DNA from: an uncultured candidate division Zixibacteria bacterium | GTDB lineage: Bacteria > Zixibacteria > MSB-5A5 > RBG-16-43-9 | Direction of reading: 5' to 3' | Assembly: GCA_963713865.1 (NCBI GenBank) | Contig: OY970208.1 | Location: 288,001-352,000 of the forward strand | DNA: 64,000 bases | Position numbers and translations under genes: made by a program | Notes under the pieces: generated by a model | What the model was told of the DNA's origin: nothing | What the model saw: only the letters and a program-made list of their open reading frames with translations | Database searches by the model: none | Shown here: in pieces, positions 42,683 to 43,788 of the stretch | How positions within the stretch are numbered: position 1 is the first letter of the stretch | Layout: each line of letters opens with the position of its first letter

Positions 42683-42769
42683 TAGCGGGGGTTGGATTTG
42701 AACCAATTCGCCTTGGCGAAGGTTATGAGCCCGACGAGCTACTCCGCCGCAGGCGGACTCCACCCTGCG
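42683..42769 (-). pseudogene. Pseudo-tRNA-fMet (87 nt) with two palindrome replacements; identical copies at 43027-43113 and 43371-43457
   Basis: CGCAGGGTGGAG[TCCGCCTGCGGCGGA]GTAGCTCGTCGGGCTCATAACC[TTCGCCAAGGCGAA]TTGGTTCAAATCCAACCCCCGCTA. Confidence 0.9.
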
Positions 42770-42998
42770 ACATTTCGTCTATAAATTCCCTACCTTTTCC
42801 AGTTTTCAACCACCTCTCCCTTTTAACAGCTTCTCCTCTGCTGTCGAACTCCTCTGAGTAAATCACCCGCCAGTTACTATCTACCTTTGTAGTTTTACAT
42901 AATCCAAAATTATGCTCCGATAACCTGCGTCCTAAATCGGAAGTATACCCAGTATATTGTTTTCCTTTAGCAGATTGAAGCACATATACTGTAAACAT
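42723..42998 (-). CDS. GIY-YIG nuclease family protein (copy 3)
   Basis: VYVLQS...QYTGYTSDLGRRLSEHN, WRVIYSEEF..RGEAVKRERWLKTGKGREFI. Confidence 0.92.
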   Translation of the reverse strand: MFTVYVLQSAKGKQYTGYTSDLGRRLSEHNFGLCKTTKVDSNWRVIYSEEFDSRGEAVKRERWLKTGKGREFIDEMSQGGVRLRRSSSSGS

Positions 42999-43066
42999 AA
43001 GAGGAAATCAGAGGGATAATAAAAAATAGCGGGGGTTGGATTTGAACCAATTCGCCTTGGCGAAGG

Positions 43067-43342
43067 TTATGAGCCCGACGAGCTACTCCGCCGCAGGCGG
43101 ACTCCACCCTGCGACATTTCGTCTATAAATTCCCTACCTTTTCCAGTTTTCAACCACCTCTCCCTTTTAACAGCTTCTCCTCTGCTGTCGAACTCCTCTG
43201 AGTAAATCACCCGCCAGTTACTATCTACCTTTGTAGTTTTACATAATCCAAAATTATGCTCCGATAACCTGCGTCCTAAATCGGAAGTATACCCAGTATA
43301 TTGTTTTCCTTTAGCAGATTGAAGCACATATACTGTAAACAT
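43067..43342 (-). CDS. GIY-YIG nuclease family protein (copy 2)
   Basis: Identical to copies 1 and 3. Confidence 0.92.
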   Translation of the reverse strand: MFTVYVLQSAKGKQYTGYTSDLGRRLSEHNFGLCKTTKVDSNWRVIYSEEFDSRGEAVKRERWLKTGKGREFIDEMSQGGVRLRRSSSSGS

Positions 43343-43410
43343 AAGAGGAAATCAGAGGGATAATAAAAAATAGCGGGGGTTGGATTTGAACCAATTCGCC
43401 TTGGCGAAGG

Positions 43411-43686
43411 TTATGAGCCCGACGAGCTACTCCGCCGCAGGCGGACTCCACCCTGCGACATTTCGTCTATAAATTCCCTACCTTTTCCAGTTTTCAACCA
43501 CCTCTCCCTTTTAACAGCTTCTCCTCTGCTGTCGAACTCCTCTGAGTAAATCACCCGCCAGTTACTATCTACCTTTGTAGTTTTACATAATCCAAAATTA
43601 TGCTCCGATAACCTGCGTCCTAAATCGGAAGTATACCCAGTATATTGTTTTCCTTTAGCAGATTGAAGCACATATACTGTAAACAT
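43411..43686 (-). CDS. GIY-YIG nuclease family protein (copy 1)
   Basis: Identical to copies 2 and 3; starts 28 nt after the tRNA discriminator base. Confidence 0.92.
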   Translation of the reverse strand: MFTVYVLQSAKGKQYTGYTSDLGRRLSEHNFGLCKTTKVDSNWRVIYSEEFDSRGEAVKRERWLKTGKGREFIDEMSQGGVRLRRSSSSGS

Positions 43687-43714
43687 AAGAGGAAATCAGA
43701 GGGATAATAAAAAA

Positions 43715-43788
43715 TAGCGGGGGTTGGATTTGAACCAACGACCTTCGGGTTATGAGCCCGACGAGCTACCAGCCTGCTCCACCCCGCG
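43715..43788 (-). tRNA. Initiator tRNA-fMet (CAT), CCA not encoded
   Basis: CGCGGGGTGGAGCAGGCTGGTAGCTCGTCGGGCTCATAACCCGAAGGTCGTTGGTTCAAATCCAACCCCCGCTA; unpaired C1, three G-C pairs in the anticodon stem, GGTTCAAATCC T-arm. Confidence 0.97.

Follow-up and report, generated by a model that had tools for sequence, protein, structure and literature searches.

Among the closest described systems are the Ssn proteins, single-domain GIY-YIG enzymes that cut single-stranded DNA (ssDNA) beside their own hairpin repeats and whose genes lie in a repeat-gene-repeat layout termed IS-like by the authors (Chenal et al. 2025, PMC11893778). Here, we describe a locus in a 64,000-nt stretch of an uncultured Zixibacteria genome (the window; contig OY970208.1, positions 288,001 to 352,000), in which an initiator tRNA gene (tRNA-fMet) is followed by an array of small GIY-YIG genes, each with a hairpin-bearing copy of the same tRNA. 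The source genome (G000) is a single 2.72-Mb contig. We consider it probable, with moderate confidence, that this tRNA-fMet gene is occupied by a tRNA-lodged mini-nuclease cassette, selfish and homing-like, which has been amplified to three tandem units.

The likeness to Ssn lies in a single-domain GIY-YIG protein of about 100 residues and a short GC-rich hairpin, which adjoins the gene and is repeated in the genome, and the core of the hairpin found here (TCCCGCC...GGCGGGA) is similar to that of the published NTS, in its TTCCCGCG...GCGGGAA portion (PMC11893778). The main text of that report does not contain the word tRNA (PMC11893778), whereas here the gene is found inside a duplicated tRNA gene, with the hairpin replacing arms of the spare copy. 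The Ssn-type link between a gene and an adjoining, genome-wide hairpin-forming repeat is present at our locus, with a different motif (TCCGCC/TCCCGCC). The closest solved structures also differ, being UPF0213 and SLX1.

The UPF0213 or bacterial SLX1-like stand-alone proteins (solved structures 1zg2 and 1ywl) are the best matches in sequence and fold, and they likewise represent a minimal GIY-YIG domain. The UPF0213-like group has been treated as ancestral, vertically inherited proteins of a repair type (Dunin-Horkawicz et al. 2006, PMC1564403), and the accessible text of that study mentions tRNA only for a TrmH fusion, with no selfish tRNA-lodged context. The closest formal analogue is provided by the mORFs of fungal mitochondria, which insert in essential genes (atp6 of Allomyces; atp6, atp9, cox2, and nad3 of Glomus), bring a replacement gene end, and leave the native end displaced downstream as a dead duplicate, with the site empty in related species (PMC3630166). 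The mORFs thus share with our locus the free-standing endonuclease gene (one of them GIY-YIG) and the duplication of a gene end, but their hosts, as described there, are organellar protein-coding genes, the endonucleases are larger and two-domained, and the displaced copy carries no cognate hairpin (PMC3630166). At our locus, the host is a tRNA gene of a bacterium, and the nuclease consists of the catalytic domain alone.

Hairpin repeats recognised as ssDNA by a small nuclease are also known from REP/BIME-RAYT (HUH Y1) and IS200/IS605 systems, but these have another enzyme fold. A separate DNA-binding domain is typical of I-TevI and of the Seg proteins, whose action takes place between phages that co-infect a cell and which are not known to have partial copies of a single tRNA, plugged with hairpins, at their sides. 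SegB is a free-standing GIY-YIG homing endonuclease of the phage T4 tRNA gene cluster, where it biases the inheritance of the tRNA region (PMC2330249), and it was reported to promote segmental amplification (2026, PMC13096335). The placement of a GIY-YIG gene among tRNA genes resembles our locus, and the nuclease-linked tandem amplification serves as a precedent for the three-unit array. In the literature searched (supplementary files aside), no paper describes a duplicated tRNA gene that harbours a GIY-YIG cassette. Both the class of the enzyme and its partnership with a hairpin are already known. A first-pass annotation, made from the letters of the window alone, knew of no description of the architecture; we did not find the tRNA-lodged, tRNA-duplicating layout with plugged copies in print either, but the partnership has its precedent in Ssn (PMC11893778).

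ARAGORN and Rfam find a single tRNA in the region, tRNA-Met(CAT), and the GGG/CCC anticodon stem typical of initiators can be read from its sequence (Table 1). Tandem Repeats Finder reports a repeat at 42674-43769 with a period of 344 nt (3.2 copies, 99% matches), and by direct comparison the assembled array consists of three 344-nt units that are identical letter for letter. Each unit starts with a T/C-rich 28-nt leader, followed by a 91-codon GIY-YIG ORF (open reading frame), which extends into an 87-nt tRNA copy and stops at the TAA within the retained CTCATAA of the anticodon loop. Compared with the intact tRNA, the copy has G4 changed to A and two segments replaced by palindromes, while the last 24-25 nt are the same. 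The first-pass annotation had described the array, the ORF with its stop, and the differences of the copy in the same way, and all of these observations are confirmed in the assembled sequence, whereas its interpretation is partly supported, as detailed below. The three tRNA copies obtain no tRNA score in the Rfam search (E up to 1), and folding gave no support for a cloverleaf.

The promoter-like site upstream of the tRNA is the best sigma-70-type match in 41200-44100 (10 of 12 positions, a consensus match only), and the scan of this interval shows no promoter-like site on the array strand inside the units. Together with the terminator-like site after the array, this layout agrees with read-through from the tRNA promoter, as had been proposed, with expression being a prediction from the sequence. 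The absence of a Shine-Dalgarno sequence had also been pointed out. The leader indeed has no GGAG/GAGG/AGGA core, but this is not an oddity, because by a crude count such a core precedes only 461 of the 1039 long ORFs of the genome (44%) and the other 56% are without it; we dropped it as a peculiarity of the locus.

The 91-aa protein matches the Pfam GIY-YIG family (PF01541) with an E-value of 5.7e-13 (49.4 bits; cut-off, 22.6). The nearest solved structures by sequence are the UPF0213 proteins 1zg2 (E 3.1e-15) and 1ywl (E 5.4e-14), with the SLX1 structures being weaker matches (E 5e-5 and weaker). Across 12 aligned homologues, Y5, Y15, G17, R25, N30, and E61 are invariant and H29 is nearly so, and the Tyr-Tyr-Arg-Glu set is what we take to be the GIY-YIG active site. 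The AlphaFold model (predicted local distance difference test [pLDDT] score of 80) shows the element order strand-strand-helix-strand-helix-helix of a GIY-YIG-type fold, and the top Foldseek matches are 1zg2 and the SLX1 structure 6seh, the latter with a root mean square deviation of 2.2-2.6 Å. The domain ends at about residue 78, beyond which the model shows a disordered tail (pLDDT below 50 for residues 81-86 and 88-91). Pfam and the model both indicate a single bare catalytic domain, without the DNA-binding extension of homing endonucleases. The best reading of sequence and model is a putative single-domain SLX1/UPF0213-like GIY-YIG mini nuclease that is Ssn-like.

The orthologue in a related genome of another genus (G003) is 72% identical, with a ratio of nonsynonymous to synonymous divergence (dN/dS) of 0.09 at a synonymous divergence near saturation (pS 0.69; dS about 1.9). 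The low ratio shows that the ORF encodes a protein under purifying selection. The G003 orthologue ends 12 codons sooner, at a TGA inside the D-stem of its tRNA copy. Since this stop comes earlier and the extra tail in our protein is disordered in the model, the "fusion" of the ORF to the tRNA copy, as it had been called, is incidental and was overstated.

The window genome contains five further small GIY-YIG genes besides the fMet array, three of which are found directly 3' of tRNA-Gly(TCC), tRNA-Ala(TGC), and tRNA-Ser(GCT), the Ala cassette sitting in the 16S-23S spacer. These three cassettes are each followed by a partial copy of their own tRNA, beginning in the D-loop. In place of the anticodon arm, the Ser copy has the hairpin TCCCGCC-GCT-GGCGGGA and the Gly copy the hairpin TCCA-TC-TGGA, and the Ala copy has lost the arm altogether. 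Homologues were found in 36 of 41 related genomes, and 18 of the 19 loci examined there have a tRNA on the same strand within about 300 nt. All 18 also have partial tRNA copies, with break points concentrated at tRNA positions 27/28 and 43/44.

The same arrangement is found far beyond these relatives. A scan across phyla, using a four-sequence alignment as the query and one genome per species, yielded 80 loci from Ignavibacteriota, Zixibacteria, Bacteroidota, Chloroflexota, many phyla of the candidate phyla radiation (CPR), Pseudomonadota, Elusimicrobiota, Omnitrophota, and others. There is a tRNA within 300 nt at 65 of the 80 loci, in all 65 cases on the strand of the gene, where an arithmetic estimate of chance proximity gives about 1% (2.9% of the genome is within 1 kb of a tRNA). 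The tRNA is located before the gene at 25 loci, after it at 37, and overlaps it at 3, and there are 22 anticodon labels, one of them left unassigned by ARAGORN. Beyond the far side of the ORF, 50 of the 65 loci carry a partial copy of the neighbouring tRNA. The prediction that homologues would lie beside tRNA genes and modified copies of them thus holds among the relatives as well as across phyla.

The palindromes, first taken for a private remodelling of tRNA-fMet, turn out to belong to a family of 82-88 hairpins dispersed over the genome, with 53 TCCGCC-N2-6-GGCGGA and 29 TCCCGCC...GGCGGGA hairpins compared with 0 in three simulated genomes. Hairpins of this type are present in the fMet and Ser cassettes. 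Ten of 82 are within 1 kb of a tRNA, against the 2.9% of the genome that is so located, and 11 of 82 cap a larger hairpin (at least 5 complementary flanking pairs), compared with 1.1% of controls. One example of the latter is a REP stem, GGACAGAA...TTCTGTCC, with a TCCGCC hairpin in its loop.

Several comparisons indicate that the hairpins are under selection. The stem of hairpin 2 is identical in G000, in a genome of the same genus (G001), and in G003, where only the loop differs (CC for AA); because synonymous sites are almost saturated and no template for the stem exists in the real tRNA, this identity points to selection on the stem. Hairpin 1 has another sequence in G003 with the hairpin form kept, and fMet copies in Bacteroidota and other lineages have hairpins at the same two positions. 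At 54 of the 65 tRNA-linked loci, there is a GC hairpin within 250 nt, and the density is 2.94 per kb near the genes versus 0.62 further out. The exact TCCGCC...GGCGGA motif recurs near nuclease genes in Chloroflexota, Bacteroidota, Omnitrophota, Elusimicrobiota, and CPR phyla, among others. Variants track particular clades of the nuclease: CCTGCC-TGCC-GGCAGG the Bacteroidota tRNA-Arg clade, GTCGCC...GGCGAC a clade at tRNA-Gly(GCC) and tRNA-Ala(TGC) (loci L037, L073, and L085), and an extra CCAGCC hairpin a CPR/Bdellovibrionota clade. Judged by these comparisons, the hairpin is a selected partner of the nuclease, with variants that covary with the nuclease clades. Protection or recognition had been suggested as the role of the palindromes; a recognition site fits better, since the variants follow the nuclease clades across phyla.

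Related genomes show the fMet site in different states. Two genomes of the same family (G004 and G006) are the empty-site relatives that had been called for: they have the same promoter, leader, and tRNA-fMet as G000, and the tRNA runs straight into the flank that is downstream of the cassette in G003 and G000. G003 has one unit, and G000, as assembled, three. G001 has a doubly plugged tRNA copy without an ORF, and upstream of this copy the tRNA leader is repeated in a diverged form. Such variation between presence and absence at one site among related genomes is seen with free-standing homing endonuclease genes. As compared across these genomes, the pattern is that of the gain, loss, and amplification expected of an insertion, unlike that of a fixed gene.

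We built a tree of 92 proteins (77 alignment columns; 38 of 87 inner branches unresolved). The tRNA labels require 34 changes on this tree, whereas 300 shuffles gave 61 on average and never fewer than 55. Several clades with the same tRNA cross phyla, with fMet joining Ignavibacteriota and Zixibacteria, Gly(TCC) joining Pseudomonadota and a genome of the Microgenomates group (CPR), and Arg(TCT) joining Bacteroidota and a metagenome-assembled genome labelled Actinomycetota. The four copies of G000 fall into four separate clades, each with partners at the same tRNA. The nuclease lineages stay with their own tRNA, in part through descent and, apparently, in part through transfer.

On the reading that we favour, the cassette would have three parts: a gene without a promoter of its own, about 80-90 codons long, which encodes the single-domain SLX1/UPF0213-like GIY-YIG nuclease; a short GC-rich hairpin (TCCGCC...GGCGGA type) as the cognate DNA motif of the enzyme; and a spare, disabled tRNA copy with the cognate hairpin in its loops or arms. 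Transcription of the nuclease gene would depend on read-through from the tRNA promoter. The enzyme might bind the hairpin in ssDNA in an Ssn-like manner and nick beside it, or it might cut the tRNA gene of an empty allele. The conserved tRNA sequence flanking the cassette would then provide homology arms, and repair would copy the cassette into the unoccupied tRNA gene. Because the tRNA is duplicated in this process, the host would retain a working tRNA, and the displaced copy would be plugged with hairpins. The tandem array is best accounted for by unequal recombination between the tRNA end and its copies, possibly stimulated by the nuclease.

If this is true, an unnoticed minimal selfish cassette resides in tRNA genes of many bacterial phyla, and it would illustrate how a DNA hairpin, together with the conserved sequence of tRNAs, can make a bare catalytic domain site-specific. 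Many of the stray partial tRNA copies and odd "tRNA-like" calls in annotated genomes would then have an explanation. The Ssn family, itself of interest for ssDNA tools, would also be extended to a mobile setting, in which natural variants of the hairpin correspond to clades of the enzyme, and the three-unit array would be a natural case for asking whether such nucleases drive local gene amplification.

We tentatively consider a bolder version, in which the 80-aa SLX1-like nuclease and the 15-nt hairpin together constitute mobile DNA of a new kind, acting on single-stranded stem-loops, the gene riding along by means of the duplicated tRNA gene; we regard this as possible rather than probable. 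Equally tentatively, the hairpin may be swapped into the loops or arms of tRNA, REP, terminator, and apical rRNA helices, with the tRNA acting as landing pad and homology arms. Such a mechanism, if true, would differ from integrases, DDE and HUH transposases, and classical homing by double-strand breaks, and would be spread over at least a dozen phyla, including CPR.

Several observations weigh against the selfish tRNA-lodged cassette. An enzyme that homes by cutting the intact tRNA gene should cut an occupied allele as well, and we infer cleavage, mobility, and expression of the cassette from sequence and analysis. The fMet cassette is old, and recent mobility at this site is unsupported because the cassette is common to two genera at a dS of about 1.9. 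On the protein tree, the phylum labels cluster too (33 changes compared with a mean of 45); as the alignment is also short and 38 of the 87 branches are unresolved, vertical descent explains part of the tRNA signal. Fifteen of the 80 cross-phylum loci have no tRNA within 300 nt, with the match being less than 300 nt from the start of the available DNA in 6 of them, and 72 of the 82 family hairpins have no tRNA within 1 kb. Hits to the SRM pattern published for the Ssn system are not enriched, numbering 4 in the genome compared with 3-8 in five simulated genomes, and none is within 600 nt of any GIY gene in G000. The correlation between nuclease hits and hairpin excess across the 41 relatives is modest (rho of 0.41; the genomes are non-independent and there are exceptions), and two hairpin-rich relatives (G004 and G026) gave no match to the nuclease query. 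Eight Y1_Tnp (HUH) matches in the genome could move the hairpin repeats. None of the eight has a TCCGCC-type hairpin within 500 nt, and a RAYT link for these hairpins was rejected for this reason.

The strongest alternative, which we regard as unlikely, is a domesticated Ssn-like ssDNA nuclease of the host, for example, one that controls incoming ssDNA or processes hairpin repeats. The tRNA copies would then be by-products, and the tRNA location would reflect strong expression and the recombination-prone, hairpin-rich nature of tRNA regions. The strong purifying selection on the ORF, the persistence of the fMet cassette in two genera, and the genome-wide spread of the hairpins, mostly distant from tRNAs, would suit such a system, and SsnA of Neisseria modulates transformation (PMC11893778). 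A host nuclease leaves unexplained, however, that 50 of 65 loci have kept part of a second copy of precisely the tRNA next to them, that the break points are concentrated at the anticodon arm, that occupancy differs among close relatives, and that there are broken gene copies, with TAG, TGA, or TAA inside the matches.

The number of units is a separate matter. We think it improbable, although somewhat less so than for the alternatives that follow, that the three units result from an assembly error and that the true locus has one unit or some other number. The perfect identity of the units and the single unit of the orthologous G003 locus would agree with an error. The short Logan contigs of four runs, which hold at most 0.38 of the sequence words, include none that spans the array, and their one weak joint, of 42700 to 43730 (one contig, side 24), may derive from the tRNA of another organism. 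The single 2.72-Mb contig, on the other hand, suggests that long reads were used, and stacked tRNA copies and second nuclease genes are also found at other loci (for example, L005, L011, L012, and L015).

Much less credible is the view that the hairpin-bearing copy is a functional tRNA-like RNA, with a processing, stabilising, or regulatory role, and that the nuclease gene is its passenger. The ORF-less copy of G001, which comes with a tRNA leader of its own and has a fold z-score of -2.8, and the conservation of the retained segments and of the hairpin 2 stem point in this direction, but the copy has neither a cloverleaf fold nor a tRNA score, it is missing its 5' or 3' part at most other loci, and the older copies are decayed.

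Least likely of all, and hardly tenable, is debris of integrase islands, in which the tRNA repeats would be attL/attR scars of decayed elements with a stray gene remaining: direct repeats of tRNA 3' parts are a hallmark of such islands, and G000 does have single-gene inserts between exact tRNA 3' repeats at tRNA-Pro(GGG) and tRNA-Glu(CTC), but the cargo is always the same gene of about 80 aa, at 65 of 80 loci across phyla, the conserved hairpin interrupts the repeats in a way that plain att copies do not, both orientations occur (tRNA before the gene at 25 loci and after it at 37), and there is no tyrosine integrase within 400 kb. An integrase-type genomic island was rejected at the window locus itself, where the earlier statement that no integrase or transposase is nearby proved correct: all four Phage_integrase (PF00589) matches of the genome are more than 400 kb away, and the ten neighbouring ORFs scanned with Pfam, whose matches are efflux, FG-GAP, GDSL-lipase, and carbamoyltransferase genes, include no transposase, integrase, or recombinase family.

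Table 1. Coordinates of features at and around the tRNA-fMet locus (positions in the window unless the genome is named)
Feature	Position	Strand	Remarks
Intact tRNA-Met(CAT), initiator type (tRNA-fMet)	43715-43788	minus	ARAGORN; Rfam tRNA, 60.7 bits
Unit 1	43371-43714	minus	28-nt leader; ORF 43411-43686; pseudo-tRNA 43371-43457
Unit 2	43027-43370	minus	leader; ORF 43067-43342; pseudo-tRNA 43027-43113; identical to unit 1
Unit 3	42683-43026	minus	leader; ORF 42723-42998; pseudo-tRNA 42683-42769; identical to units 1 and 2
Hairpin 1, TCCGCC-TGC-GGCGGA (15 nt)	42743-42757, 43087-43101, 43431-43445		replaces 7 nt of the D-loop
Hairpin 2, TTCGCC-AA-GGCGAA (14 nt)	42707-42720, 43051-43064, 43395-43408		replaces the 3' anticodon stem and variable loop
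Promoter-like site, TTGACT, 18 nt, TATATT	43818-43847	minus	about 30 nt upstream of the tRNA
Terminator-like REP-type hairpin with T-run	42643-42663	minus	directly 3' of the array
Older, decayed partial tRNA-fMet copy	42532-42595	minus	starts in the D-loop
Second copy of 42564-42732	41297-41465	minus	92% identical
Single-gene inserts bounded by tRNA 3' repeats (Pro, Glu)	G000 1898340-1899060 and 2674480-2676140

The insert at tRNA-Pro(GGG) consists of a 161-aa lipoprotein-like ORF with a 48-nt exact repeat, and that at tRNA-Glu(CTC) of a 452-aa pentapeptide-repeat/membrane ORF with a 40-nt exact repeat; neither has an integrase.

Downstream of the array, the decayed tRNA-fMet copy, as aligned to the tRNA, has a hairpin of the TCCCGCC-AAA-GGCGGG type in place of the anticodon arm. 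The repeat at 41297-41465 contains the 3' half of a plugged tRNA copy, the terminator hairpin, and the start of the old partial copy. This repeat and its 92%-identical counterpart enclose about 1.1 kb (41466-42563) with two small plus-strand ORFs (41972-42133 and 42180-42338), neither of which matches Pfam. The enclosed region may be a further small insertion at the tRNA-fMet hot spot.

The window encodes another small GIY-YIG protein on the minus strand (33520-33732), which is 34% identical to the fMet protein and lies away from any tRNA. It is bracketed (flanks 33250-33950) by a different repeat, of the GTCATGCTGAGCGAAGCGAAGCATC type, which has the GTC...hairpin...C look of published Ssn-related motifs.

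Further observations concern the other cassettes of the genome. The GIY-YIG cassette of the rRNA operon (G000:C1:1312630-1312833; locus L109, about 3631-3834) is located between tRNA-Ala(TGC) and the 23S gene and is followed by the tRNA-Ala copy without an anticodon arm; a locus in a relative (L019) shows the same layout. Upstream of the Gly cassette (2133640-2134060; L110), between tRNA-Thr and the real tRNA-Gly, there is a full-length tRNA-Gly copy with its anticodon arm swapped for TCCATCTGGA, and the spacers are duplicated too. The ORF downstream of the Gly cassette presumably encodes a protein resembling the four-helix-bundle (23S-IVS-type) proteins. A decayed GIY-YIG ORF with an in-frame TAG (2702288-2702497) lies at a distance of 4 kb from the tRNA-Ser cassette; behind it is what remains of a tRNA-Ser 3' end, and the whole looks like a dead cassette.

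TCCCGCC/TCCGCC hairpins also form rRNA helix tips in the rRNA operon of G000, at 1310413 (16S) and at 1314340 and 1315057 (23S), and another is found at 1316403, just after the 5S gene. In the 16S helix, G000 and G001 share the tip TCCCGCC-TTT-GGCGGGA and G003 has TTCGCC-TTT-GGCGAA, and two genomes of other families (G036 and G039) have an unrelated, longer helix at the same position.

The terminator-like hairpin 3' of the array belongs to a GTAG-tagged REP-like type, GGACAGAAC...GTTCTGTCC with a T-run, which is found at 42643-42663 and 41376-41396 and has about 20 BLAST hits in the genome. None of the eight Y1_Tnp (RAYT-like) matches is within 1 kb of the REP-like repeats. The looser REP pattern, GGACAGAA...TTCTGTCC, has 56 copies in the genome, some of which hold a TCCGCC hairpin in their loops.

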